DNA of 63,098 nucleotides, the filler included, from Sphacelaria rigidula (Eukaryota): assembly GCA_964200075.2 (NCBI GenBank). It is 4 parts of 4 records of this genome, joined end to end, with 100 filler letters (N's around TTAATTAATTAA, not from the genome) between each part and the next. Parts side by side here need not be neighbours in the genome. Positions count along the whole stretch, not along the records: positions 47,401 to 63,098 come from CAXNAA020001639.1; 3 more parts are not named here. One strand, 5' to 3'. Below, one piece after another: positions 11,365 to 60,535 of this stretch; within the stretch, counting starts at the first letter, position 1; each line of letters starts with the position of its first letter. The notes beneath the pieces were generated by a model. The model saw only the letters and a list, made by a program, of their open reading frames with translations. It was not told the DNA's origin and did no database searches. A program made the translations under genes and the position numbers.

Positions 11365-11979
11365 TTAATTAAGTGCTATGTGTTGCACGCTCACATGTAC
11401 GCGGCCCCCTTTCATTTTCACAGCAGACCTCTGCAGGAATGGCATTCCTTATTGGGTCATTTTGAACGACGCCAAGGCAGTATTTCAGGTATCGTCGCTC
11501 CTTGTAATAAGATGCAGAAAATGTCCCTAGGCTTGAGACCGCTGGAAGTCACCGGCAAAGGTGCACCGTAACTGTTACAGTACACATGAGGCGCCTTCCT
11601 CGCATCGATGCTGTAGAACAGCCTGTTTGTTTCTTCACCTACAATGGGGCACCGCAAATACTGCTGCCCGGCAATAGAATCCCTTGCACCCGTATGTGTA
11701 CATAATTTTCGCACCTAAACTCTATAATGTTTACACACTGACCACAGCAGCATGCGTACCGCGAACCACGGGCGGGCGTCGGTCATCACACAGTCTACTC
11801 CGGAAGACCATATGAATGATTTCCCACGAGCACCTCACATCCAAAACGGCACCTTGACGCCGGATCTCCCGTTTGTGGACTTGAGACCCGTGTCTCAGCT
11901 ATGCTCCTCCGTGTTGCCCGTCTGGTTATTATCTCTAATTCGGCAACAGCGGCCCCTCGACGACATCGGCGTGGCCGCA

Positions 11980-13107
11980 ATGATTGCCCGCTGCTACGTC
12001 GCGAGCGCCATCGCACGACGGACCCACACCGCACGCCAATTCTCACGCGAGCTTGCGACTGCAGTCCCTGCTCTTCAGTGGCGACCAGGCCTCCCACCCA
12101 GACGCTCAGTTCCGCACGTGTCGTTCGTTGGTTCATCAGATCTCCGGGAAGCCGTCGCGCAAACAAATATCTCGAGCGACAGCACAGGGATTCCGCGGCG
12201 ATCCGCTAGGCCAGTTCCTGACGGTTGCACAGTAAAACACACTCGACCACCGCCTATATCTTCGAGGAGCTTGGCCACCGTTGCTGATCCTACGCAACAC
12301 CCGTGGGCGCTAGCGCGTGGGGACAAGAAGGAAGACGGTGGAGCGACGGAAAGTGGAGTATCGACAAGCCGCGCGCCAAAAAATCAAATGGCTCTGCTGG
12401 TGAGGCGTCTGAAAGCCGCCGGTGCCGAGAGAAATTGGCGGGAAATGGAGCGTGCGATGGAGACCGCGCTTGCTGATCCCGACGTATTGCCTTTGCGCGT
12501 TTACAATAGCGCCATGAAGGCCTTCATCAAAAGCGGTAGGTGGTTCAAGGCTGCCGATCTGTTCGACGAGATGCAGGCGCGAGGAGTCACTCCGGACGTG
12601 ATGAGCTATAGCGCAATAATGCAGGCTTACGGACAGGGTGGGAAGTGGGGAAAATGTGTGGATCTTATGGCCGAGATGGAACAACACAGTTTGAGTCCAG
12701 ATGCACTAAGTTACAGTGTGGCCATTAAGGCCTGCGGAGATAGCGGGCAGTGGGAAAAGGCTTTGGATCTGTTAGCGGAGATGCCTGCGAAGGGCGTTGC
12801 TCCGAATGCAATGTCTTACAACACGGCGATCATGGCGTGCAGAGTTTCTGGGCAGTGGAAACGAAGTGTGGATCTGTTGAGCGAGATGTCGGCAAATAGT
12901 GTTACGCCCGACCTCATCAGCTACAACACGGTCATGAAAGGGTGCGAAGAATGTGGGCAATGGGAAACTGTGTTGGATCTATTCGCCGAGATGCGGGCGA
13001 ATGGTCCCACCCCTGACGCGAGTATTTACTCATTGGCAGCGACGGCGTGTTCCGAGCTGTCGAGGGAAGCACGAGAAGGGAAACGGATACCTAGGTTGTT
13101 GGAGTAG
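11980..13107 (+). CDS. Pentatricopeptide repeat (PPR) protein, P-type, probably organelle-targeted, intronless
   Basis: Five complete 35-aa PPR motifs (e.g. LRVYNSAMKAFIKSGRWFKAADLFDEMQARGVTPD, AMSYNTAIMACRVSGQWKRSVDLLSEMSANSVTPD) plus a partial sixth. The ORF is open from 11752. ATG 11980 begins an R/S/A/T-rich, acid-poor N-terminus (MIARCYVASAIARRTHTARQFS) resembling a mitochondrial presequence. The start choice is inferred. Confidence 0.88.
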   Translation: MIARCYVASAIARRTHTARQFSRELATAVPALQWRPGLPPRRSVPHVSFVGSSDLREAVAQTNISSDSTGIPRRSARPVPDGCTVKHTRPPPISSRSLATVADPTQHPWALARGDKKEDGGATESGVSTSRAPKNQMALLVRRLKAAGAERNWREMERAMETALADPDVLPLRVYNSAMKAFIKSGRWFKAADLFDEMQARGVTPDVMSYSAIMQAYGQGGKWGKCVDLMAEMEQHSLSPDALSYSVAIKACGDSGQWEKALDLLAEMPAKGVAPNAMSYNTAIMACRVSGQWKRSVDLLSEMSANSVTPDLISYNTVMKGCEECGQWETVLDLFAEMRANGPTPDASIYSLAATACSELSREAREGKRIPRLLE

Positions 13108-15701: not shown

Positions 15702-15801
15702 NNNNNNNNNNNNNNNNNNNNNNNNNNNNNNNNNNNNNNNNNNNNTTAATTAATTAANNNNNNNNNNNNNNNNNNNNNNNNNNNNNNNNNNNNNNNNNNN
15801 N
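15702..15801. other. Artificial scaffold linker (N44-TTAATTAATTAA-N44)
   Basis: The same 100-nt construct appears three times, and TTAATTAATTAA has stops in all six frames. Confidence 0.95.
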
Positions 15802-31501: not shown

Positions 31502-31601
31502 NNNNNNNNNNNNNNNNNNNNNNNNNNNNNNNNNNNNNNNNNNNNTTAATTAATTAANNNNNNNNNNNNNNNNNNNNNNNNNNNNNNNNNNNNNNNNNNN
31601 N
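31502..31601. other. Artificial scaffold linker
   Basis: N-TTAATTAATTAA-N, 100 nt. Confidence 0.95.
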
Positions 31602-47300: not shown

Positions 47301-47400
47301 NNNNNNNNNNNNNNNNNNNNNNNNNNNNNNNNNNNNNNNNNNNNTTAATTAATTAANNNNNNNNNNNNNNNNNNNNNNNNNNNNNNNNNNNNNNNNNNNN
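47301..47400. other. Artificial scaffold linker
   Basis: N-TTAATTAATTAA-N, 100 nt. Confidence 0.95.
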
Positions 47401-47619
47401 GCGTGGGAGAACCTCAACTCCGCACAAGAACCTCAACTCCGCACAATGGGAATGGTCGTACCGCGTAGTTTTTTTATGGTGAGACACCCCATGAGGCAGT
47501 GTAAAAGCTGCGGCTGTCTCTGGAAGTGGCGATACCACAGAATAAAGCAACTCATTGTAGGCTGTCATCTAAGTGCAAGATAATCAGTAGGCTTTGGGCC
47601 GAAGAATCTTAGCAGGATG

Positions 47620-48030
47620 CCGCTCACCCTTCATGCGACTCGCCAAACCCCACGGCGCTTCGCGCCTGGTGATTGAGTGCGAGCCTAGTCAGGCGAGAAC
47701 CCGGCGTGCTCCGTCTCGGCATTGTAGGGATGCGAGGTCAGGTCTCATGACTATGGTAGCGTGATTATGAGAACCCCCCCCCCCCCCCACCCCCCCCCCA
47801 AAAGGGCACCGAAAAAGTGGCCATACCCCCCCCAAATTTTGTGGTTAAGCTGCGAAAAGGGCCCCATATGGGCGATATTGGCGAAAACGAACTCAAGCGT
47901 GAGAATTCATAGCTGCTCGTTGTGCTCGGCTTTTTTCATTCCGATTCACGTGTTGATTCCACCTCTAGAAACCAGCCACTTTTCTGGGGTGCGGGTATCG
48001 TAGAAAGTGTCGGCAATCAATCAAATATAC
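47620..48030 (+). repeat. Dispersed repeat; partial copies at about 945-1055 (+), 15505-15660 (+) and 49741-49836 (-)
   Basis: Shared GGCGARAACCCGGCGTGCTCCGTCYCG and ATATGGGCGAYATTGGCG..AACGAAC.CAAGCG segments. Confidence 0.7.
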
Positions 48031-48121
48031 ATCAGTCGATTTCCGTGCAGTTCGTGCCACTCTTACATGGGGCAACAGAGGCAGTCCATACGATTAAAGC
48101 AGACAGTTGTCAAGGAAGGAC

Positions 48122-48215
48122 CTATTGATTTGATGTGACATGATAGTCGCACTTGGACTGACCCCCCAGGGGTCCAGCCGTGGTCTCATAATAGACGTAC
48201 CAACAAAAACAAAAC
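48122..48215 (-). mobile_element. Truncated LINE 3' end
   Basis: CTGACCCCCCAGGGGTCCAGCCGTGGTCTCATAATAGACGTACCAA is the reverse complement of the same tail. Confidence 0.72.
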
Positions 48216-48320
48216 TGTGACACCCGCTGAAGAACAGAAGGAACACAAAAGGAAACAAGGGAAGTCGGGGAAAAGTCGACCTAGGACGACGACAATGAAC
48301 GGGAAAAAGCCAAAAGCTCA

Positions 48321-49687
48321 TATACCGCCTGCATTTCCGCCGAAGGTCAGTTTAGCTGAATACCCACTTTAGAAATGCTACAAATGCAGCCGCCTGATTC
48401 GCCAAATCACGCCGGCAACGGATTCCAGTAAAAGGAACGCGCGGTGTACCTGTTGTTGACAACTCGATGTGGATTCCACCGGTTTTCGGCGATGATGCCA
48501 CCGGTTTTTGGCGATCGACGTGCCTGACCACAGGCTCCCGGCCAGCCCCGAAACATGTCCACGTCACCATATTCTCCGATACCGTTTGGCGGCTGGCCGC
48601 TAGATACCGGGAGTTTTGTTTCGTCAGCCGGACCACCGCCATCCCAACCCGTGAAGGGCTTTACCCACAATCACGCAGCTGTTCCACAGCTTCGAAGTGG
48701 ACGGGCGAATGAATCACGGCGGAGCGAAAACACAGTTTCTGTACACAGTTACTGTAGCCGAAAAAAAAACGCACCGCCATCCTACCAGGAACATCAACAA
48801 TACGGGTAGAATATCTTGCTGCCCAGGTTGAATGGATGAAACACGCACACAAGCACTCTTTTAGTCCTGGCGGGCGCTGCATGCACAGCCTCCGATCTTT
48901 TCCGCAGCAGACGATGGCCTCAACACGGAAATCTCTACCTCTTCGGGTTCTGCTGTCCTTCGGTTGGGCCTCTGTTGGCCTACACCCGCCCGCTAGCTAC
49001 CCACAAGAAGGAGCCGTGGGCACACGATCGGCAGTTCTCTCAAGCTGCGGGGTCGCTATTACTGCCTGCGTGTGCACTATGCTTGGGCACGTGTCTGTAC
49101 CTTGCCTGGCTGCATACGGACGCGCTTTGACGTCAGCCGTAGATTTGTAAGGTGTATAGTGCTTTTTAGGGGTGACCACACGCCAGCTGCCGCTGCCATC
49201 CCTTTTTTGTTGGTTGGCTCTACACCCCTCTTCAGCCGATGTCAGTCGGTGAGTGACGTGTGCCTTGTATTTCCGACTTGCTGTGTGTTTTTCTCCGTGG
49301 TGAGTTTTTGTCCGGCCACTTCGAAGCTGTGGGACATCCGTATGATTGTTGGTACAGCCCTTCATGAGTGTGTTCATGGGTTGGGATGGTGGTTGGAATG
49401 GCAAAACAAAACTCCCGATAATCGGCTGCCAGCTGCCGCCGAAAGGCAACAGAGAATATGATGACGTGTAAACGTTTTGCCGCTGGCCGGGAAATCTGCG
49501 GTCAGGCACGTCGATCGCCGAAAACCGGTGGAAGCCAATATTAGTTGTCCCTAGCAGGTACATCACGCGTGCCTTTGGCCAAAACCTGTTAGCGGCGTGG
49601 TTTGGCCAATCAGGCAGCTGCATTCGTTAGCATTTCTGAAGTGGGTGTTGAGCTGTAACGGGTTTTGGCGAAAATGCGGGCGGTATA
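48321..49687. mobile_element. Non-autonomous DNA element with diverged TIRs of about 410 bp and TA flanks
   Basis: TA|TACCGCCTGCATTTCCGCC at 48321 and GGCGAAAATGCGGGCGGTA|TA at 49687. Arms 48321-48735 and 49281-49687 align as reverse complements (e.g. CACAGCTTCGAAGTGG / CCACTTCGAAGCTGTG). Confidence 0.8.
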
Positions 49688-52510
49688 CTCATATTTCTGA
49701 ATGCCTCAGTCGTAACACCACTGACTGCGCCCCCCACGAAACCGGGACGGAACACGCCGGGTTTTCGCTGGCAGGCTCGCAATCACCAACCGCGAAGCGC
49801 CGTGATTTATTCCACGAGTCGCATGAAGAGTTAGCCGTTTTCTACAAATATTGTTCCGCCCGTAGTGCAGTAAGAACCTTGAATATCAAAAAGCATGGAA
49901 AACACAGCGTTTCCGGAAGCAAATACGGAGTACTTCTTTTCAAGGCCGCTGCGTCGCTGGCGCAACGTTTTTAGACATCAACCTCTCGTTGCACGTACCG
50001 CGTTCCTCTATTGCGTGTCGGAGTTGTTGCCCCCTCAGTGTGCTGTCCTGGTCGCACGGAATGCGCCGACGATCTCGAGACACTGCTCCTATTTTCGTTG
50101 CATGCAACGAAGAACCCCCCGTAGGAAGAGTCTGGGCCGGACCAATGCACCTGCAGATGCCGTCTCCCGCCACCGTGCATTTGCTGAACCTTTTCCCGCC
50201 GGTACCGATGCATGAACCGTGTTCCTATGGTGTTTCTCGTGTCATACCACATGGTGCCATATAGACCGACTGTGCCTCGACACGATAGTAGCAGGTGTTG
50301 CCGCCGTAATCCTGTAAATTTCAACCCACCGTTTAGTTTCTGTTTCTATTCTGACCTCGGCCACTGCGGTATGTCCTTCAACATTCTGGAGAAAACCATA
50401 AATCTTCGACGAAAGGGCGTAGGCGTTGTAGCGCTGGAACATTGCTGGAACTCCCACGGAGGCCGTGGAGTGATGCTAATAGCACAAAACGTTTCCGGTC
50501 CGGAGGTTCGGGTGTTGCCACAGCTGATTTGATCGAAACATACTCGAGATGGGTCAAGCCTAATGACTGATCGCAGCTGTCACAGCTACATCTCATCGAC
50601 ATACCCGGATTGGGCCGTTATACGCATATGGTATGAATTGTTTGATTGAAGGGAAGATACCCATGTACTTAAAGAGCCTGGGCCGGGTTTTCGTCGTTGA
50701 TTAAAAACTATGTCGGTTAATCCGTAATCCGTAATCCGTATTGTTACAGGCTTCATACCAAAGTCTACACGAAGCCCCAAACGATACGTCGAACGGATGG
50801 TGATGATGTTTCATGCGGGCGTTCCCTGGAGCACGGGCGAGCGATAGGTACTCTCACTTCCACGCGAAAACACCTGCAGGCCTAACCGAATTTTATTTTC
50901 GAGCCTTGTCTTCGTTCAGAGTCTATTGTCGAAACCTCGGAGTCAAGCGAATGTGAAAATCGAGCTAATCTCTCGGTGTGTTGATGCAAAGTTTCCAGAG
51001 ACGTGTGATGGCGATATTCCTTGTTTGTGAGTCAAAACCCGTGTAAATAGTCCAAAACAATACGACCCCAGACGAACGCGAACCGTGAGAAATGGGTCTG
51101 CTCAGTTTCTCAGTCCAAGCTATCAAATTGATCTTCGAAATATAGTACGGAGACTCACAAAGGCATGTCGAAAACAAAACGAACCGAAAATGGCCTTTAC
51201 TTTCATGGTGAGTCAAGGACGTCCTCGTGAAAGCGTGATCCATACTACACTCAAGCGGTTCTCATTTACTCAGAAAAAAAATCTCCCTGTCCCCCTATTT
51301 GGCTATTATTATGCCGTAGCGATTCTTCACACAGACGTTTGAGGCACAAGTACCAAAACGGGGTTGGTAAATAGCCTTCCAAATTCCGTGCCATTTTACG
51401 AGCGACCTGGGCTGTGAATCTGGCATTCTCACCTAATTTCGATACATGAGCTTTCAAATTTCCTATGTAACCCCAAGTGCATACACACACCGTACTTGTA
51501 TGACGTTAAGTTTGATTTGATGATTCAGAGCCGTTTAATTAATGACTAATTTGTTTTTCCACAACTTATCGAGAAACACAAATTTCTTGTCCCCAAATGT
51601 GTATTCCTGCCATGCCCAAGCAGTGCCCCATACCACATTTGAGGATTTCAAGTCTCAAAATTGAGGTGATGGTCGATCTTCCACCTACGAACCCGCTTCC
51701 AGGTTGGCCCAGTTCATCGCACGTCCTTGCTGTTGTGATTCGGATGTCGACCTCTACAGACCCCTTGTTCTGTACCGTCGTTGTTTTGACGGAGTTGGCA
51801 TCACAGATGAGCAACTGCGTCTGCGTAGAGGCTTACAGGGCCACCGTGATAATGCTTGCGGCGCATTAGGTACATGCTCGCTTTTGAGTACATTTGTGCC
51901 CCGTCGAATAGTTCAACATCTCCGTCACCCTTCTCCCAAGCCCTGATACGGCACATGCATTTTTTCTGGCGCTGTTGAACAACAACGCTGCCGCCCCTAC
52001 CCTACACTCGCGTCGAACGTGTACCCGAGTAGACTGCTCATATGATGCTGCATAGTGATAGCTCACTTTGTCGATCATGGTTTCTGACTTTTCATTGTGC
52101 ACAAGAGTTTATAGCTGACTCGTCCTGTGTGACCTGTAACCCTTAGGTTTGTCACTTGGAAGTATATCAGTCTGTCATTCCTCTTTGATACGGTATCCTT
52201 TTAGCATCAGCATTGTGCTTTACATGCACCCTATAAGATTATTGTCCTTGATTGTACTATACTAGTGTTTGATCCGCTTCCGATCCCAACTGCAATAGCG
52301 TGGAGGATGCCCCATTCGCTGAAATCACTTTTGGAGTTGGCGTCAGCTTACATGAAGCGTCGTATGAGTTGAATTCGGCCAGGCCCTTTTTCCTCCGAGT
52401 ATGTGCAGCAATAACGCGAAGTCATTTGTACTGACAACGTTTTAACTCGCTTCGGCCCACGGCTCACGGAGTGTTTCCCGCCGTCGTGGTATTTGTGCTA
52501 CCGTAAGCAG

Positions 52511-55500
52511 TAGGATTCCGAAGGAGCGGCACGGAGGAGCTGACGGCCGACATTGCCAGACGAAGGTACATCAACGAGGGCTGCTCCAAGCTATCCCCGG
52601 GTGGTTTACCGGGCTACAAGGCTGAGTTCTGCTCGAAGATTGCTGGGGCAGGAGTGGTAGATGTGACGAAACGTGTGTGTGGTGACGGAGGCTGCTCGAT
52701 GTGGAAGCCGTCCTATGAAATAGCGGGAAGCAAGGAAGCAGAGTTCTGCTCCAAGTACGCTAGGGCGGGGATGATTGATTTGGTGAGCAAGAAGTGTGGC
52801 TACGAGGGTTGCATCACGCAGCCGTCGTATGGAATAGCGGGAAGCAAGACAGCAGAGTTCTGTTCCGAGCATGCCAGAGTGAGAATGTCAAATGTGGTGC
52901 AGAAGAACTGCGGCTACGAGGGCTGCTCCACGCAGCTGTCAGACGGTGTGGCGGGAAGCACAAAGGCGGAGTTTTGCATTAAGCATGCCAGAGCGGGAAT
53001 GGTGAATGTGAAGAACAAGAAGTGCGGCTACGAGAACTGCTCCGCGTGGCCATCGTATGGTGTAGCTGGAAGCAAGAAGGTGGAGTTCTGTTTCAAGCAT
53101 GCCGGGGCAAAAATGGTGAATGTGGTGAGTCAGAGGTGCGGCCACGAGGACTGCCCCGCGCGGCCGTCGTATGGTGTAGCTGGAAGCGAGAAGGCGGAGT
53201 TCTGTTTCAAGCATGCCAGGGCAGAAATGGTGAGAGTGATGCACAAGAAGAAGTGCAGCGATGAGGGCTGCTCCACGCGTCCGTCGTTTGGTGTAGCAGG
53301 AAGCCGGAAAGCAGAGTTTTGCTGCAAGCATGCCAGGGCGAGAATGGTGAATGTGAAGAATAAGACGTGCAGCTACGAAGGCTGTTCAACGCAGCCGTCG
53401 TATGGTGTGGCGGGAAGCAAAGAGGCGGCGTTTTGCTCCAAGCATGCCAGGGCGGGAATGGTGAGTGTGGTGAAAAGAGCGTGTCTCTACGAGGGCTGCT
53501 CCACGCGTCCGTCGTTCGGTGTGGCGGGGAGTAAGAAGGCGGAGTTCTGCTCCAAGCATGCGAGGGCGGGAATGTTGGATGTGGTGAACAAGAAGTGCAG
53601 CGAAGAGGGCTGCTTCACGCAGCCAAATTATGGTATAGCGGGAAGCAAGAAAGGGGAGTTTTGTTCAAAGCATGCCAGGACGGGAATGGTAAATGTGGTG
53701 CACAAGACGTGCGGCTACGATGTCTGTTCCACGGTGCCGTTGTATGGTGTGGTGGGAAGCAAGAGGGCAGAGTTTTGTTCCAAGCATGCCAGGGCGGGAA
53801 TGGTAAATGTGGTGCACAAGACGTGCGGCTACGATTTCTGTTCCACGGTGCCGTTGTATGGTGTGGTGGGAAGCAAGAGGGCAGAGTTTTGTTCCAAGCA
53901 TGCCAGGGCGGGAATGGTGAATGTGGTGCATAACATGTGCGGCCTCAAGGACTGCTTCACGCGGCCCTCGTACGGTGTAGCGGGAAGCAAAAAGGCGGAG
54001 TTCTGTTCCAAGCATGCCAAGGTGGGAATGGTGAATGTGAGGACCAAGAAATGCGGCTACCAGGGCTGTCTTGCGGTAGTGTCGTACCGTGTGGCGGGAA
54101 GCGAGAAAGCGGAGTTCTGCTCCAAGCATGCGTTGGCGGGAATTGTGGGTGTGGAGAAAAAGACGTGCAGCGAAGAGGGCTGTCCCGCGCCGCCGTTGTA
54201 TGGTGTGGCGGGAAGCAACAAGGCGGAGTTCTGTTCCAAGCATGCCAAGGTGGGAATGGTGAATGTGAAGAACAAGACGTGCGGCTACGAGGGCTGCTCC
54301 ACGCAGCCGTCGTATGGTGTGGCGGGAAGCAACAAGGCGGAGTTCTGTTCCAAGCATGCCAGGGCGGGAATGGTGGATGTGAAGAACAACATGTGCGGCT
54401 ACGAGGGCTGCTCCACGCATCCGTCGTATGGTGTGGCGGGAAGCAAGAAGTCGGAGTTCTGTTCCAAGCATGCCATGGCGGGAATGGTGGATGTGAAGAA
54501 CAACATGTGCGGCTACGAGGGCTGCTCCACGCGACCGTCGTATGGTGTGGCGGGAAGCAAGAAGTCGGAGTTCTGCTCCAAGCATGCCAGGGTAGGAATG
54601 GTGATTGTGAAAAAAACGAAGTGCGGCTACGAGGGCTGCTCCACGCGACCGTCGTATGGTGTGGCGGGAAGCAAGAAGGCGGAGTTCTGTTCCAAGCATG
54701 CCAAGGTGGGAATGGTGAATGTAGTAAACAAGAAATGCGGCTACGAGGGCTGTCTTGCGGTAGTGTCGTACCGTGTGGCGGGAAGCGAGAAGGCGGAGTT
54801 CTGTTCCAAGCATGCCAAGGCGGGAATGGTGAACGTGGTGAAGAAGAGGTGCAGCGAAGAGGGCTGCTCCACGCAGCCATGGTATGGTGAGGCGGGAAGC
54901 AAGAAGTCGGAGTTCTGCTCCAAGTATGCCAGGGCGGGACTGGTAAATGTGAAGAACAAGAAATGCGGCTGCAAGGGCTGCTCCACGCAGCCGTGGTATG
55001 GTGGGGTGGGAAGCAAGAAGGCGGAGTTCTGTTCCATGCATGTCAAGGCGGGAATGGTGAACGTGGTGAAGAAGAGGTGCAGCTATGACGGCTGCTCCAC
55101 GCTAGCGTCAGGTGGTGTGGCGGAAAGCCAGACGTCGGAGTTCTGCTCTGAGCACGCGAGGGTCGGAATGGTGAACGTGGTGGACAAGATGTGCAGCGAC
55201 GAGGGCTGCTTCACGCTCCCGTGGTGTAGTGTATCGGGAAGCAAGAAGGCGGGGTTCTGTTCCAAGCATGCCAAGGCGAGAATGGTGAATATGGTGAACA
55301 AGATGTGCAGCTACGGGGGCTATCCCACGCGGCCGCCGTATTTTGTGCCGGGAAGCCAGAAATCAGAGTTTTGTTCCAACCATGCCAAGGCTGGAATAGC
55401 ATTTGTGATGAATAAAAAGTGCCGCAAGAATGGGTGCTCCAAATCACCCCTCGACAAGGAAGACAACTTTGATAAGGAAACGCTTTGCCGACAGCATGCT

Positions 55501-56094
55501 AGTGCACACAACACCGCTGCGGTGTTCGCCACCACTGAGCTCCACACTGGTAAAGGCAACCCCGACGGCAGAGCAACCGAGGGTAATGAAAGAAGCGTTG
55601 CTGATGTAGGAGGAGTAAAGCGCAAGCGCGCAGCTATGTTGAGTCCTGTCGGAAACGACGGCGTAGATGCTCGCCGTTGTATGAGCGGTGGTTCCAGGGA
55701 GGGGGGGAGGACGCCGTCGCTCTCGGGACATACACTTTTGTTCCCAGGACATCCACCTTCGAGGGCTGATGATGAAGAGTCTCTACAGACAGGAGCAACA
55801 GCAAGAATGAAGGTGGAGCTGGCAGTCGCTTCTCCCACATACGGTAGCGATGACATGAGGGAGTGTCGGGAACAGGCTCCCCCTTCAAGTGGTTGGAGTA
55901 GCGAACGTGGTCGTAGTGAAGTCATCAGCAATGGTGGTGGCGGTACGGGGCGGCTCTATGGTTCCCCGGTAGTCGAACCCGAATGCTTGGACACATCTGA
56001 CGATGTAGCGTTTGATATGGTAAAGGAGGATTCGAACGTGAAGTTGGAGCTAGGAGTATCCAGTCAATCTCTTCGGACGTCCGATGCATGGTAG
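52511..56094 (+). CDS. EsV-1-7-type cysteine-rich tandem repeat protein (about 25 x 38-aa C-X4-C-X16-C-X2-H repeats); large terminal exon
   Basis: The 1146-aa ORF 52654-56094 has 24 canonical units (consensus MVNVKNKKCGYEGCSTQPSYGVAGSKKAEFCSKHARAG) and one degenerate unit. The spacing matches the EsV-1-7 motif known from Ectocarpus virus EsV-1 and the brown algal IMM family. The frame stays open back to TAA 52504-52506, followed by a CAG/TAG acceptor at 52508-52513, so an upstream exon is likely. Confidence 0.9.
52654..55500 (+). repeat. Coding minisatellite, 114-bp unit, about 25 copies
   Basis: GGCGGAGTTCTGTTCCAAGCATGCCAGGGCGGGAATGGTGAATGTG recurs every 114 bp (117 bp in two units). Confidence 0.95.
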
Positions 56095-56384
56095 ATAGCA
56101 CCACTCCTTGTACCGCTCTCGTTACTCGGATGGGCCAGTTGGTTAGTCTGCCGGTGTGTGCTCACGTATGTTGTCAGCGATCTGAAACGAGCGTTGGTCG
56201 CCACAGTGTCTTCCCTTCCACATGCGAAGCAGTTCTTGATTTCGACGGGGTCCTCATGTAACAGGGTTTACCCTGTTGGAGAGTGTAACGTTTGATCAAG
56301 ACTCGGAACCCAAGTAGCAGGGATTCCTAATCAGTTCATTGGCTGATGCTTGTTGAAACTTTTTCACCGATACAGGCAAGGATA

Positions 56385-57901
56385 GGCTCGAATGAATCTT
56401 TTCCCGCTCATTTGCCGTTCACGGACGCCACAATGACCACGCCCCTTTCTCCCCGAAAATAGTCCCCGAATCTTTTCTCATCGACACAACAACTGAACGC
56501 ACAACTTATAGCGCGTTGGTCTATTATGATCCGTCGGGGTGTGTCTCACCGTACTGTTGCGATTTCGGGGCTTGTGTCAGGGTCAAGCCAGGTTCTTCCG
56601 CCACCAACGGGCGGTTGTCGCATCATCGATGGTTGGTCCAAGCAACGGATACAGTACTGACCCGTCACGAATCATACAGAAATAGGGACAACGCAGTAAT
56701 GGCATAAAATCAGCGTGCGTCTTGAAATTGACGTAGCACGGGGATCCGACAAGGTCTAATCACACGAAAAACCAAACTCTAAAGTATTTCTGCCTTTGTT
56801 TGCGGCTTTCAGCCATTCGCACATCTTCTGCGGGCAAAATCCGAACTTCTCGCTGGCCGTTGGTGATTGCTACGCACGGTCCCGATAGATGTGATGGGTG
56901 TGTTGACCGGCGTTGGGCTACACACGTTCATGGTTGACACATTACTTGATTTGAGAGTTTGCAACGAGAATCGGATCTTGAGTAGGGCTGACAGCCCAAT
57001 GTGCTCCTCACGTGCGTAAGACGCGCTTTCATTGAAATCGGCGCCACAGGCGCCAATTTGGGTCTACCAAGGACGCACTTTGCCAAGCGAATGCTATATA
57101 CCGCGCTTGCCCGAGGGTTCTCGGTATGGGTTTGGATAGGGTTGGGGGTAGCGATACTCGTAAAATTATGTCAACCATGGACATTTGTAGCGTTTAGTGT
57201 CTGCGAGTAAAGCTCCCGTGGCCCAATGGATAAGGCGCTTCCCTCATTTGGAGAAGATTGGGGGTTCAAGGCCCGCCGAGGGTAATACGCGTATCCACTG
57301 CTCAGAGCAACTCTTTTTTTGTTTTTCTTGGGTACGTATATCATGAGACCGCGGCTGGAACCCTGGAGGTCAGTTAAAGTGCGACAATGAATCAAGTCAT
57401 CGATCAATCAAACGCCGGTTAACCCGTACACAGCGACGCGGGTATTTGATCTAGATCACACATACTTTTCCCAGTGAAATTGATGCCAATTCAGCAGGCG
57501 CCCTACCCTCGCGGTCTGAAGGTTCACTCGCCTCGTTCCGCGAGTGTTTTTGTAGGGCACACATTACTCTGTACTGTAGCGCTGAACGCTACTACTGCTG
57601 CTCTGTCCTCATTTCTGTATGATGCGTGACGGCCAGTACTTTATCCGTCGCTTGGACCAACCATCGATGATGCGACAACCGCCCGTTTGTGGCGGAAGAA
57701 CCTAGCTTGACCCTGACCCCAGCACCGAGATCGAAACAGTGCAGGGTTTGACAACCCACCGGATCACAAAAGACGAACGCGCTGTGAGTTAGTTGTGAGT
57801 CCAGTTACTGTGCCGATGCAGAGACTCGGGAACAATTCCCAGGGGGGGAGGGGCGTGGTCGTTGTGGCGTCAGTGAACGGCAAATAAGCGGGAAAAGAGC
57901 C
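56385..57901. mobile_element. Non-autonomous element with TIRs of about 310 bp
   Basis: 56397-56700 is the reverse complement of 57590-57898 (e.g. ACGGGCGGTTGTCGCATCATCGATGGTTGGTCCAAGC / GCTTGGACCAACCATCGATGATGCGACAACCGCCCGT). No clear TSD. Confidence 0.8.
57326..57412 (+). mobile_element. Truncated LINE 3' end nested in a TIR element
   Basis: CTTGGGTACGTATATCATGAGACCGCGGCTGGAACCCTGGAGGTCAGTT...CAATCAA. Confidence 0.72.
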
Positions 57902-58849
57902 GAATGTGTGGGCGCCATGGTTGGAGTTGGCGCGTAGACTCCCTTTCGCACCATGTGCCGCATCAGGTACAATGTAGAAAGCGATGGCCTAGCACAGGTA
58001 CGTTCCCAGCCGATCGGTGGCCAAGATAAGGTACGATTGAAAAATAATTTCTCGGTCAGTTATACCTCGCCGAAATTTGGCATAGAAAGGGTGAGTGCTT
58101 TCTGGAGGTGAGACGTCCGTTTTCGCGTGGCGATATCTTGCGAGTAACATATATATCTTTCCGTTTTTGTTTTCGAGGCCCGGGTGCCAAGACCCCCCCC
58201 GAGTGATGTGTGTAAAAGGTTCGAACGAAAACGATCAAACCAACAACGTGATTAGCTGTTTACGCGCTTCAGGCAATTTCTCGTACCTTCCTTGGGCAAA
58301 AAGGAGAAGGTATACCTTTTCTAGGCCATTGCCCTTAATATCACGAGTAAAAACACTTTCTTTCGTTTGCTTGATTCGTTATTGATGCTGTTTCACTGAC
58401 CCCCAGTGTACGTTTCCGAGACAAAACAAAACCGAGAGCATACTAAACGCGAATCTGCACTTCGTGTCTCAGCTTGAAGAGCTGTGCCTGACGTCTGGCA
58501 TGGAGTATCGCAAGGGCAAGCAGACAAAGTTCAGAACGTTTGAATTTGTTTAATGAGTTCAGGGTGTTTTTGCGCAAAATATACATTTTCCTCAGCCCTT
58601 AACTCAGATTCTCGGCTTACCTTTTGGAGTTGTGAGTTGAAATTCAGCATGGAAAATCGTGAAGGCATGTATTTGTGTGTGTTGTCATCCCATCTATTCT
58701 GGACGTCAGCCTAGACCTTTCGGTATACAAATGTGGGTACATCAGCCGGGATCACACAGGAGTTATATATATACAAGGTTCCCCTTCGGGAGGTTGGTAC
58801 TGGCCTCCCGGGGGTGACGCAAGTCGAAAGTATAAGATATACTTTCTAC

Positions 58850-58955
58850 GAGTATGCCTTTTCAGTGCGCTGCAAAAAAAAGCGTGGGAAAAAATACCTT
58901 GCTGGCAGAGAAAACTCGGCAAAAGTGGTGAACGTGTGAAATGATACATGTACAT
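58850..58955 (+). repeat. Direct repeat of about 105 bp, second copy at about 61855-61958
   Basis: CTGCAAAA..AAAGCG..ATACCTTGC..GAAACTCGGCAAAAGTGGTGAA..ATACATGTACAT occurs in both. Confidence 0.75.
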
Positions 58956-59203
58956 AATACACATGGGTTGAATGAAGGGAGAAAAAGCGCGCGAGTCATC
59001 GCTTCGTCCGCTTCAATCGAGCAAGTATATATTGCCCTCCGCCAAAAATAAACAGACGCGGACAAACACAACTGATGAGGGAGCCTCCGATTACATAAAA
59101 CGATGTTTTTCGTGAGATTGAGAGTAGAGGATACGGTTGAGAAGGAAAAGCGGTCAATTAGTGATTTAATCGTTTCAGTTCCGAAATATCCCTCCACGAC
59201 GCC

Positions 59204-60535
59204 AGTGTTGCAGGTTAAGGGCAACGCCCGGTTAAGGGCAACTTTCCGCTGAAGGGCAAGCGGTCCGGATTAAGGGCAAGCGCCCCTGACTATGGGGAAG
59301 CGCCCGTGGTTAGGGGGAAACGCTCTCGGGTAGGGGGAAGCGCCCCTGGGTAGGGGGAAGCGCTCCTGGGTTGGGGGAAGACCACCTGGATAGGGGGAAG
59401 TGCACCTGGATAGGGGGAAGCGCATCCGAGTGAGGGGAAGCGCACCTGGGTAGGGGAGAGCGCACCTGAATACGGACAAGCGCCCCTCCCTACGGGCAAG
59501 CGCACCTGGGTATGGGCAGGCGCCCCTGGTTATTGGCATCTGCCCCTGGCGATGGAGGAGCGATACACGTATTGTCAACATATTCCCGAATCAGCCGAAG
59601 AATGACAAACCGTCAAGCGCGTGCTAAAAACCCACGATACGGGTGTCTCTGGCTCGTGGACTCGCGATACAGGTGTCTCGTGGGCACACGATACAGGTGT
59701 CTCTGACTGGTGGGCACGCGATACAGGTGTCACTGGCTCCTGGACACGATACAGGTGTCTCTGGCTTCTGGGCACGCGATACAGGTGCCAACGCGTTGCC
59801 ATTACCACGATACAAATGCCACTGGCTTGTGGGCACGCAATACAGGTGTCCACGCGTCATCCATAAGATGATACGGGTGTCACTATCTTATCGGCACACG
59901 ATACAGGTGTCTCTGACATGTGGGCGTTGCCCATAACACGATACGGGTGTCTCTGGCTTGTGGGCACGCGATACAGGTGTCTCTGGCTTCACGGGTGGCC
60001 ACCGGGGTGCCTGAAACCTCACATGTGAACGTTACAGACGTTGCACAAGGTCTGTAACGTTCAAATTTGAGGTAGCAGGCACCCCAGTGGCCACCCTTGT
60101 TGTGGGCGTTGCCCACAAAACGGTAAGGGTGGCTCTGGCTTGTGGGCACGCGATACAGGTGTCTCCGGCTTGTAGTCACGCGACACAGGTGTCTCTTGCT
60201 GGCGGTCACGCGATACAGGTGTCTCTGACTGGTGGGCACGCGATACAGGTGTCACTGGCTAGTGGACACAATACAGGTGTCCCTGGCTATCCAGGTGCGC
60301 TTCCCCCTACCCAGGTGCGCTTCCTATTACCCAGGTGCGCTCCCCCGTACCCAGGTGCGCTTCCTCGTACCCAGGGGTGCTTCCCCATAGTCAGGGGCGC
60401 TTGCCCCTAATCCAGACCGCTTTCCCCTAACCACGGGCGCTTCCCCAAAGTCAGGGGCGCTTGACCTTAATCCGGACCGCTTGCCCTTAAGCGAGAAGTT
60501 GCCCTTAACCGGGCGTTGCCCTTAACCTGCAACAG
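59204..60535. mobile_element. Foldback-type element: TIRs built from 20-bp tandem units around an internal 30-bp minisatellite
   Basis: TGTTGCAGGTTAAGGGCAACGCCCGGTTAAGGGCAACTT at 59206 is mirrored exactly by AAGTTGCCCTTAACCGGGCGTTGCCCTTAACCTGCAACA ending at 60534. 20-bp GGGTAGGGGGAAGCGCACCT-like units lie at 59215-59530 and inverted at 60288-60530. 30-bp CACGCGATACAGGTGTCTCTGGCTTGTGGG units lie at 59632-59990 and 60120-60287. Confidence 0.85.

Follow-up and report, generated by a model that had tools for sequence, protein, structure and literature searches.

The array of tandem EsV-1-7 units in this stretch of the Sphacelaria rigidula genome raises the question of whether a nearly constant zinc-finger-like scaffold carrying a set of variable positions constitutes a modular, code-based binding protein parallel to PRDM9 and TALE arrays, as the original prediction held, or whether the same pattern can arise in a less specialised protein. 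The window analysed here is the whole stretch of 63,098 nucleotides. The evidence gathered below makes it likely that the gene is an unusually long and otherwise ordinary EsV-1-7 member whose variable positions are neutral, a judgement that covers the identity of the gene and the neutral reading of its variation and excludes its ligand.

The presence of some 25 tandem units of 38 residues was borne out by the open frame, by TRF, by Pfam and by the register of the units. TRF delimited positions 52723–55397 (period 114, 23.4 copies, 79% matches, score 2844), and Pfam placed the product in PF19114 (EsV_1_7_cys) at 1028.7 bits (cut-off 25) with 24 matched stretches, which confirmed the family assignment. 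Additional Pfam rows on the array (Phe_ZIP, DUF1490 and Plug_translocon) had 0 matched stretches and were taken as summed repeat noise. One extra codon is found in each of units 1 and 6, and unit 25 is degenerate. All four ligands are placed at the canonical C-x4-C-x16-C-x2-H spacing in 22 of the 25 units (23 anchors were found), the exceptions being unit 1 (x17, and Tyr for His34), unit 20 (Tyr for His34) and unit 24 (Tyr for Cys14), and erosion is seen in the terminal units 22–25. The scaffold was confirmed to be nearly constant, with Cys9, Ser25, Phe30 and Cys31 invariant across the array and seven further residues (Met1, Val4, Cys14, Gly24, Glu29, His34 and Ala35) kept in at least 90% of units. 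Each unit carries a net charge of +3, and the array has a pI of 9.3. The identity between units at the DNA level averages 77.9% (range 67.5–99.1%, the highest value being that of units 10 and 11) with a pS of 0.318; some duplications, those of units 10/11, 16/17 and 13/19, are recent, and no higher-order period was seen in the array. Other frames are open across it too, for example one of 458 aa on the minus strand.

On the plus strand the large frame is open from 52507 to 56094 (1195 codons), just downstream of an in-frame TAA at 52504–52506, and contains an ORF at 52654..56094 (1146 aa). From position 52507 the frame aligns with the N-terminus of P0114, a paralogue from the same species (51.6% over 64 aa, E 1e-14), and the aligned lead includes a degenerate unit 0 (approximately 52543–52653) that has lost Cys9 and His34. 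The contigs of two sequencing sets (X5 and X6), whose RNA nature is a guess backed by the depth contrast and by a break at 52509, showed depths of 36–45 over the ORF and of 2–5 on the flanks (about tenfold), whereas the depth of the DNA run X1 was 58–85 in both. Upstream of 52509, where their match to the genome starts, these contigs have another 28 letters that do not match, while the DNA contigs of X1 and of X9, another individual, run uninterrupted across 51400–53032. The depth over the ORF and the break at 52509 make it probable that the gene is expressed and has an upstream exon; a missing transcript, which had been named in advance as telling against a code, does not apply to a gene that is very probably transcribed. 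Past the stop codon, the contigs cover 56047–56389 in X5 (depth 19.8) and 56029–56426 in X6 (depth 19.6). The large exon probably begins at about 52511, in phase 1, and extends to 56094 plus the 3' UTR. The array was thus found where it had been proposed, at 52654..55500, but the exon that holds it is longer. A tblastn search with paralogue N-termini for start-codon exon(s) upstream of 52507 gave nothing significant. Joints inside the array (e.g. 53354>54844) were considered as introns or shorter alleles and rejected as assembly-graph artefacts, since their sides are only 19–23 letters long and they also appear in the DNA run X1.

Table 1. Features of the array gene, in positions of the 63,098-nucleotide window.
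Feature	Position	Strand	Basis or remark
Probable splice acceptor, AG after pyrimidine-rich tract	52509..52510	+	Contig break and sequence
N-terminal lead in the large exon, with unit 0	52511..52653	+	P0114 alignment
Array, 25 tandem EsV-1-7 units (38 aa / 114 bp)	52654..55509	+	TRF, Pfam, register
Non-repeat C-terminal tail (194 aa, pI 5.05, Gly/Ser-rich)	55510..56091	+	Common to the Sphacelaria rigidula subfamily
Conserved basic motif SVADV..G.KRKRA	55594..55632	+	Alignment of 9 tails
Conserved [IMV]K[VAM]E[LMT] motif	55807..55821	+	Alignment of 9 tails
C-terminal conserved SNVKLELGV, second psi-K-x-E	56035..56058	+	Alignment of 9 tails
Stop codon TAG	56092..56094	+	
3' UTR, minimum extent	56095..56426	+	Reach of probable-RNA contigs

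High-copy repeats flank the gene, and a PPR gene lies elsewhere in the window (11728–13104). No further EsV-1-7 motif was found outside the array within the 63 kb; the array gene therefore stands alone in its window, whereas brown-algal EsV-1-7 genes are reported as clustered in tandem.

The closest named relatives of the array gene are all from Sphacelaria rigidula. Eight paralogues (P0114, P0195, P0053, P0054, P0056–P0058 and P0069) have the same type of repeat, a degenerate last unit (C-R-Q-H) and the same tail with its three conserved motifs, at a tail identity of 33–61%, and P0114 additionally has the N-terminal lead. The conservation of an acidic tail (KRKR and two psi-KxE) with these paralogues is new, and so is the length of the array, since 25 repeats exceed any relative examined (15 at most). 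The paralogue gene models hold 2–7 canonical repeats, values that are lower bounds because most models begin inside a repeat on contigs of 5.6–15.7 kb. No Pfam family matched the tail, which is probably disordered. Its KRKR motif looks like a nuclear localisation signal, and the [IMV]K[VAM]E[LMT] motif would fit the psi-K-x-E consensus for SUMO attachment.

Beyond this subfamily, named matches came from Scytosiphon, Ectocarpus, Pylaiella and Nannochloropsis as well as Sphacelaria, together with giant-virus contigs and EsV-1 proteins. The spacing of 16 residues between the second and third cysteines occurs in 233 of 392 motifs from 52 homologues, and RdRP and a helicase-associated domain are among the Pfam families precomputed for homologues. 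The EsV-1-7 protein of Ectocarpus siliculosus virus 1 (Q8QNQ2) shares the motif and the predicted fold (BFVD Foldseek E 3.9e-23, 45% identity over 223 columns) and is one of a wider viral set, with 29 viral structural matches in BFVD at E≤0.001 and arrays up to 50% identical on IMG/VR giant-virus contigs. Four of the 29 bear the UniProt name 'Endonuclease' and one 'DNA primase', which are database labels of unchecked domain content. In the 16 viral ORFs scanned (of 25), 5–11 Pfam EsV-1-7 stretches were matched and no stretch matched a second Pfam domain, the extra rows being repeat noise. The viral proteins differ from the array gene in being shorter (EsV-1-7 has 378 aa, and no ORF in the 26 loci exceeds 12 motifs) and in lacking the acidic KRKR/psi-KxE tail, whereas the array gene has a cellular context and, probably, an intron.

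According to published sources, the family comprises 2018 proteins in 31 genomes and is expanded in brown algae (10.1101/2024.02.19.579948), the repeat is presented as potentially a new type of zinc finger, of unknown biochemical function, and the IMM-type members as developmental regulators without known function (10.1101/2024.02.19.579948; PMC7457493), and an Ectocarpus Tc1/mariner transposase bears an N-terminal EsV-1-7 domain (PMC12477816). Table S17 of the first of these lists EsV-1-7 genes and may already include the array gene or longer arrays. IMMEDIATE UPRIGHT (IMM) of Ectocarpus belongs to the same domain family; by its description, which is the form in which it was compared, it combines five repeats with an N-terminal domain of its own, in contrast with the 25 repeats and different tail found here. 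As had been stated beforehand, the literature searched reports no ligand for any EsV-1-7 protein.

An AF2 model of units 14–19 (pLDDT 85.3, no metal modelled) consists, according to DSSP, of short strands almost without helix, and each module is predicted to be a small helix-free unit made up of a knuckle and a short strand. This fold is neither C2H2 nor helical. TALE, PPR and PUF proteins form a helical solenoid; the model lacks one, and Pfam gave no match to those families. A sequence search of the PDB returned 0 matches and Foldseek against the PDB nothing at E≤0.001 (best E 2.4), while the VIA structure search found 7 chains at Z≥2 and none at Z≥5, the best (Z 3.1) being a RING-type Zn module matched over one unit only. 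A protein atlas search gave no usable match.

A closer inspection of the variation among units confirmed some of the observations from which the idea of a code had been drawn. The string of residues at position 17 in units 2–24 was reproduced letter for letter. The changes had been said to cluster at positions 5–8, 15–19 and 36–37, and entropy is indeed higher there than at the other non-ligand positions (1.59 vs 0.92 bits, one-sided MWU p=0.003); nevertheless positions 7, 16 and 18 are constrained despite lying inside these clusters, and positions 3, 10, 11, 20, 26 and 38 are equally variable outside them. Site models gave an omega of 0.518 for M0 (lnL -1349.73) and a lnL of -1329.07 for M1a, with w0 0.248 and p0 0.567. 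The LRT of 41 between them indicates that variation is uneven over positions, and an even spread, which would have spoken against specificity residues, was not seen. The relaxed class takes in about 16 of the 38 positions. The comparison of M2a with M1a was not significant (LRT 2.99, p=0.22). Position 17 (omega 2.75, p=0.005 uncorrected, NEB 0.92) and position 11 (omega 2.11, p=0.031 uncorrected) show a nominal excess, and none of the 38 positions passes the Bonferroni threshold (0.0013) for omega>1 in these tests, which have low power (23 paralogous units of 38 codons) and ignore recombination. The nonsynonymous excess in the 12 closest unit pairs was likewise not significant (simulation P=0.19). 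Synonymous differences are abundant at conserved codons (pS 1.33 at Phe30 and 1.42 at Cys31), and because these codons differ synonymously the conservation of the scaffold is attributable to selection and not to recent homogenisation. The 'hypervariable' positions, judged from the sequences, look neutral, being the least constrained of the family and mostly polar. To call all of them neutral is perhaps slightly too strong, given the nominal excess at positions 17 and 11.

The comparison with other repeat proteins and with the rest of the family points the same way. PRDM9 and KRAB C2H2 arrays and TALE repeats are also tandem coding repeats of about 30–40 aa in which some positions vary on a constant scaffold, and the array gene resembles them in that a repeat is closer to others of its own gene than to those of other genes (35.9 of 61 repeats have their nearest neighbour in the same protein, vs 10.8 expected). 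In PRDM9 and TALE the units are near-identical and differ at just a few contact codons. The array departs from this arrangement: with units far from identical and synonymous sites diverged, it is not a homogenised minisatellite differing at few codons. Its relaxed positions are many and its omega>1 class is not significant. The proposed parallel also gave way at the level of the family, where the same positions vary. Positional variability in the array correlates with that of 233 repeats from 52 homologues (rho 0.57, or 0.65 within 9 proteins), of 87 viral repeats (rho 0.57, where the entropy at positions 1–8 is underestimated, since peptide patterns of that segment served as seeds for finding the loci) and of 43 Sphacelaria-subfamily repeats (rho 0.83). 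Across the family, Arg and Gln are the leading residues at position 17 (98/233) and His, Phe and Tyr at position 11 (105/233), and the mean charge per unit is +2.8. Within paralogue arrays, position 17 reads K,K,K,H,K in P0053 and Gln in 5/5 listed repeats of P0195.

Diversification of alleles at the proposed specificity positions did not emerge from the individual compared (X9), in a comparison that covered the ends of the array, as short-read contigs fragment across 53033–55053. Relative to the genome, 13/1369 and 10/1657–1659 bases differ in the flanks and 2/1000 in 55054–56053. Five differences lie in the array, 0 of them at positions 5–8, 17 or 19. X9 also carries Cys9Tyr in unit 23 at about half depth. 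Its difference at 53836 (Phe13Val, unit 11) equalises units 11 and 10 and may stem from a misplaced unit-10 contig.

These results can be set against the other readings of the locus. A modular reader, in which each unit would contact a set number of bases with positions 11 and 17, and perhaps 5–8 and 19, setting the specificity, would make of 25 units a reader of a long target. It would draw on the concentration of variation beside the C-x4-C knuckle, on the nominal omega values, on the basic charge of the units and on the residues preferred at positions 17 and 11, since Arg, Gln, His, Phe and Tyr are often used for base contacts; the arrays accompany, moreover, giant-virus proteins labelled endonuclease or primase and the Ectocarpus transposase. 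This reading is nonetheless improbable, because M2a brought no significant gain and no site survived correction, because the relaxed positions number about 16 and not 2–3 among units that are 78% identical, and because no solenoid of the TALE/PPR/PUF kind is predicted; in addition, the frequent uniformity of position 17 within paralogue arrays is unexpected for a residue reading a varied target. None of the tests speaks for a code. The chance is equally slim that EsV-1-7 repeats are a third independent modular nucleic-acid reader, after C2H2 and TALE/PPR/PUF, in which every Zn-knuckle module would take a constant step along DNA or RNA while residues within or directly behind the knuckle (positions 11 and 17, alone in showing nominal omega>1) would choose the base. 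Alternatively, the Zn modules could act as LIM, RING and B-box arrays do, binding proteins and not nucleic acids. Weak structural likeness was found exclusively to Zn modules of those types, the IMM-type members are described only as developmental regulators, and the conserved tail motifs suggest regulated interactions, but the structural matches do not rise above noise (Z≤3.1, E≥2.4) and the charge per unit, together with the reported or labelled fusions to DNA-acting enzymes, better fits nucleic acid, so that a protein scaffold is unlikely.

Far less credit attaches to a diversifying anti-viral or anti-transposon recogniser, engaged in an arms race like that of KRAB zinc-finger or immune-receptor arrays. 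The family is indeed common to phaeoviruses and other giant viruses, reportedly hugely expanded in a lineage-specific manner (with eight named Sphacelaria paralogues), and high-copy repeats lie on the flanks of the gene; this reading is very improbable all the same, given the lack of significant positive selection, the age of the units (pS 0.32) and an individual that differs less in 55054–56053 than in the flanks, with none of its five array differences at positions 5–8, 17 or 19. A decaying or non-functional expansion, kept open merely through its periodic composition, could be imagined from the erosion of the terminal units, the Tyr substitutions at Cys14 and His34, the half-depth Cys9Tyr of X9 and the other open frames of the array. 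It is scarcely credible, as the 1195-codon frame has no interruption, omega averages 0.52 and falls to 0.25 for 57% of sites, the codons of the ligands do not change although their synonymous sites do, the tail is conserved in paralogues and the gene is probably transcribed and spliced.

The long, ordinary EsV-1-7 member favoured here would then be a cellular, spliced and expressed brown-algal gene of a greatly expanded family. Each module would hold one Zn through Cys9, Cys14, Cys31 and His34, and the array would have grown by tandem duplication of units followed by divergence, purifying selection now acting on about 57% of positions and neutral drift on about 40%. In the likeliest mode of action, for which the chances appear about even, the product would be a nuclear protein whose basic Zn modules make multivalent contact with DNA, RNA or chromatin and whose tail recruits or regulates partners. 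Hints of nucleic-acid binding are given by the Ectocarpus transposase fusion, the viral 'Endonuclease' and 'DNA primase' labels and the RdRP and helicase-associated Pfam families on homologues. On the opposite side, no solved structure resembles the model, and proteins are the usual partners of LIM, RING and similar Zn modules in tandem, which counts against nucleic-acid binding.

Among brown-algal gene families EsV-1-7 is one of the largest, and a developmental regulator belongs to it. The array gene offers a convenient natural substrate for asking what the repeat binds, with 25 regular units, probable expression and a subfamily tail bearing localisation- and modification-type motifs, and the per-position map now separates constrained from free residues. 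A pattern like that of PRDM9 or TALE is the outcome expected from neutral drift on the surface positions of an old array; therefore any ligand should be shown before tests of a 'code'. If a modular reader were true after all, giant viruses would aim nucleases and primases with such arrays, and no natural reader of this type among those searched would be longer than the 25-unit gene of Sphacelaria rigidula.

The gene carrying the tandem array belongs, as assigned in the original prediction, to the known EsV-1-7 family, to which it adds a new and very long member; Pfam places its protein in EsV_1_7_cys (PF19114) through 24 matched stretches, scoring 1028.7 bits (cut-off 25). The array itself is real: 25 units lie in register, and Tandem Repeats Finder returned a single array at 52723-55397 (period 114, 23.4 copies, 79% matches, score 2844). 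The full set of four ligands at the C-x4-C-x16-C-x2-H spacing is seen in 22 of the 25 units, unit 25 being degenerate, and both the predicted scaffold and the predicted string of residues at position 17 were reproduced exactly on recomputation. The GC skew of the coding strand at 52001-56000 lies between +0.23 and +0.25, versus about 0 in the rest of the window. Other-frame ORFs of 458 aa (53665-55041, minus strand), 317 aa (53937-54890, plus strand) and 307 aa (53957-54880, minus strand) run over the array; nothing supports them as genes and they were read as periodic by-products of the 114-bp repeat.

Coordinates of the array gene, its irregular units and the pentatricopeptide-repeat gene
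Feature	Position	Strand	Remarks
ORF	52654-56094	+	1146 aa
Unit 0, degenerate	upstream of unit 1, ~52543	+	
Unit 1	starts 52654	+	one extra codon
Unit 6	starts 53227	+	one extra codon
PPR gene	11728-13104	+	459-aa open frame; PPR_2, E 9.5e-43, five stretches; different record from the array

Contigs from four sequencing runs were compared with positions 47500-60000. In X5 and X6, taken as RNA by the tool's guess only, the depth was 36-45 for contigs of the ORF, about 20 for those of the 3' UTR and 2-5 for those of the flanks; in the DNA run X1 it was 58-85 for all three alike. The 3' UTR extends at least to 56389-56426. At the other end, the X5 and X6 contigs match only from 52509 on, with 28 unmatched letters upstream, where contigs of the DNA runs X1 and X9 continue through 51400-53032. 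Because this break coincides with an AG at 52509-52510 preceded, as read from the sequence, by a pyrimidine-rich tract, and an in-frame TAA stands at 52504-52506, we conclude that a splice acceptor is present, that about 52511 marks the start of the large exon (the frame is open already from 52507, over 1195 codons) and that the start codon lies in at least one upstream exon. A search for an exon upstream of the large one did not find it.

The array had been proposed to work as a modular code in the manner of PRDM9 or TALE arrays, with variation clustered at positions 5-8, 15-19 and 36-37. All tests of variation and selection were restricted to units 2-24, where the overall rates were pS 0.318 and pN 0.195. 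The clustering held in part: entropy is higher at these positions (1.59 bits, versus 0.92 at other non-ligand positions; p=0.003), but positions 7, 16 and 18 are constrained, and positions 3, 10, 11, 20, 26 and 38, outside the clusters, are equally free. Codon models were fitted on an IQ-TREE codon tree with our own implementation, which reproduces its likelihood. M0 gave an omega of 0.518, and M1a was much better (LRT 41.3), placing 57% of the sites in a class of omega 0.25 and the other 43% in one of omega 1. The positive-selection class of M2a (5% of the sites at omega 2.45) brought no significant improvement over M1a in units 2-24 (LRT 2.99, p=0.22), a comparison of low power between paralogous units on a weak tree that ignores recombination. 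In the per-site tests, omega was 2.75 for position 17 (p=0.005) and 2.11 for position 11 (p=0.031), neither p value reaching the Bonferroni threshold of 0.0013, and omega was indistinguishable from 1 at positions 3, 5, 6, 8, 10, 15, 19, 20, 36, 37 and 38. The closest pairs of units appear rich in nonsynonymous changes (u15-u16, for instance, differ by 7 of them and by no synonymous change); the nonsynonymous fraction in the 12 closest pairs, 0.777, lies inside the M1a simulation (0.701 +/- 0.079, P=0.19). The PRDM9/TALE-like reading is not supported by the tests run, all of which share the limits given for the M2a comparison.

Differences in run X9, from a different individual or population, amount to 13 of 1369 and 10 of 1657-1659 bases in the flanks and to only 2 of 1000 bases at 55054-56053. 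Five fall inside the array, one synonymous and the others M16I (unit 1), F13V (unit 11, possibly from a contig placed on the wrong unit), C9Y (unit 23) and A35P (unit 25); none of the five is at positions 5-8, 17 or 19. C9Y, a G>A change at 55193 carried at about half depth (23.8/50.2), replaces the first zinc ligand Cys9 by Tyr and fits a relaxed constraint in the array's last units.

The array is not a homogenised minisatellite: the mean pairwise DNA identity of its units is 0.779 (range 0.675-0.991), and no higher-order period was found at unit offsets 1-11. Synonymous differences are numerous at conserved codons (F30 and C31, for example), so the constancy of these codons reflects selection and not recent conversion. 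Unit duplication has nevertheless occurred within the array, units 10/11, 16/17 and 13/19 being 99.1%, 94.7% and 90.4% identical in DNA. Across the subfamily, 35.9 of 61 repeats have their nearest neighbour inside the protein they belong to, versus 10.8 expected. Private residues common to the repeats of single Sphacelaria rigidula paralogues could also be seen (C-P-S-Q-A and G-S-T-K in P0195, C-L-K in P0056). From such residues in P0053, P0056 and P0195 it follows that the array of each gene expanded or was homogenised independently.

The 194-aa tail that follows the array has no Pfam match. It is common to 10 of the 194 proteins compared and also to the paralogue P0195, in which 99% of the tail aligns at 57% identity, and all eight relatives with a source name come from Sphacelaria rigidula. 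Three motifs are conserved in its alignment: SVADV.G.KRKRA, [IMV]K[VAM]E and SNVKLELGV. With a pI of 9.27 and +3 per unit (family mean +2.8 per repeat), the array is basic, and the tail, at pI 5.05, is acidic. Another paralogue, P0114, has the N-terminal lead in common with the array protein, yet only three repeats, and its model may be incomplete.

The AlphaFold2 model of units 14-19, computed from a 34-row alignment with invariant Cys and His columns, reached a pLDDT of 85.3 and a pTM of 0.46. Each unit shows short strands at Y20-V22 and M1-N3 and almost no helix. No clear match to the array sequence or model was seen in the PDB, the weak rows all being small Zn modules. Viral predicted structures in BFVD match the model strongly, EsV-1-7 itself among them; several are named 'Endonuclease' or 'DNA primase', which are database labels only.

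The whole 63-kb window holds no other EsV-1-7 motif, and the pentatricopeptide-repeat gene, an ordinary cellular gene, supports a host over a viral context; the context of the array is therefore read as cellular and not as a viral insert. The summed contig depth of the DNA runs X1 and X9 rises to hundreds to thousands of times single-copy at 47500-48333, 49585-50001 and 56257-59600, with a peak of about 1.2 million versus about 65 for single-copy sequence, so high-copy repeats or transposable elements lie on either side of the gene. The N-runs at 15702-15801, 31502-31601 and 47301-47400 each consist of 2 x 44 N around 12 bases; lying 15,800 and 15,799 bases apart, they look like masking or an artefact of window preparation, unlike assembly gaps.

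The EsV-1-7 motif is presented as a possible novel zinc finger in two reports (10.1101/2024.02.19.579948; PMC7457493), the former describing an expansion to 2018 proteins across 31 genomes. It occurs in giant viruses too and in IMM, and a Tc1/mariner transposase carries it N-terminally (PMC12477816); the literature searched reports no ligand. IMG/VR giant-virus contigs (L001-L014, L026) encode arrays of 5-11 Pfam stretches that share at most 50% identity with the present units; behind each array come 100-250 aa that match no Pfam family, and no second Pfam domain was found in the 16 viral ORFs scanned. A word-based search gave 52 homologues (the best with 45% identity across 37% of the query), and the unit profile, run as a full HMM scan, gave 3250 representatives at E<=0.001. 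The motif count reaches at most 15 repeats among the 52 homologues and 12 among 26 giant-virus loci, and every one of the best 150 of the 3250 representatives has 15 matched stretches or fewer. The repeat count here exceeds that of every relative examined, a statement about these relatives rather than all brown algae. In its entropy profile the array correlates with 233 repeats of the 52 homologues (rho 0.57), with 87 viral repeats (rho 0.57), with the within-protein mean of nine proteins (rho 0.65) and with 43 repeats of the closest subfamily (rho 0.83). Which positions vary is therefore a family trait.
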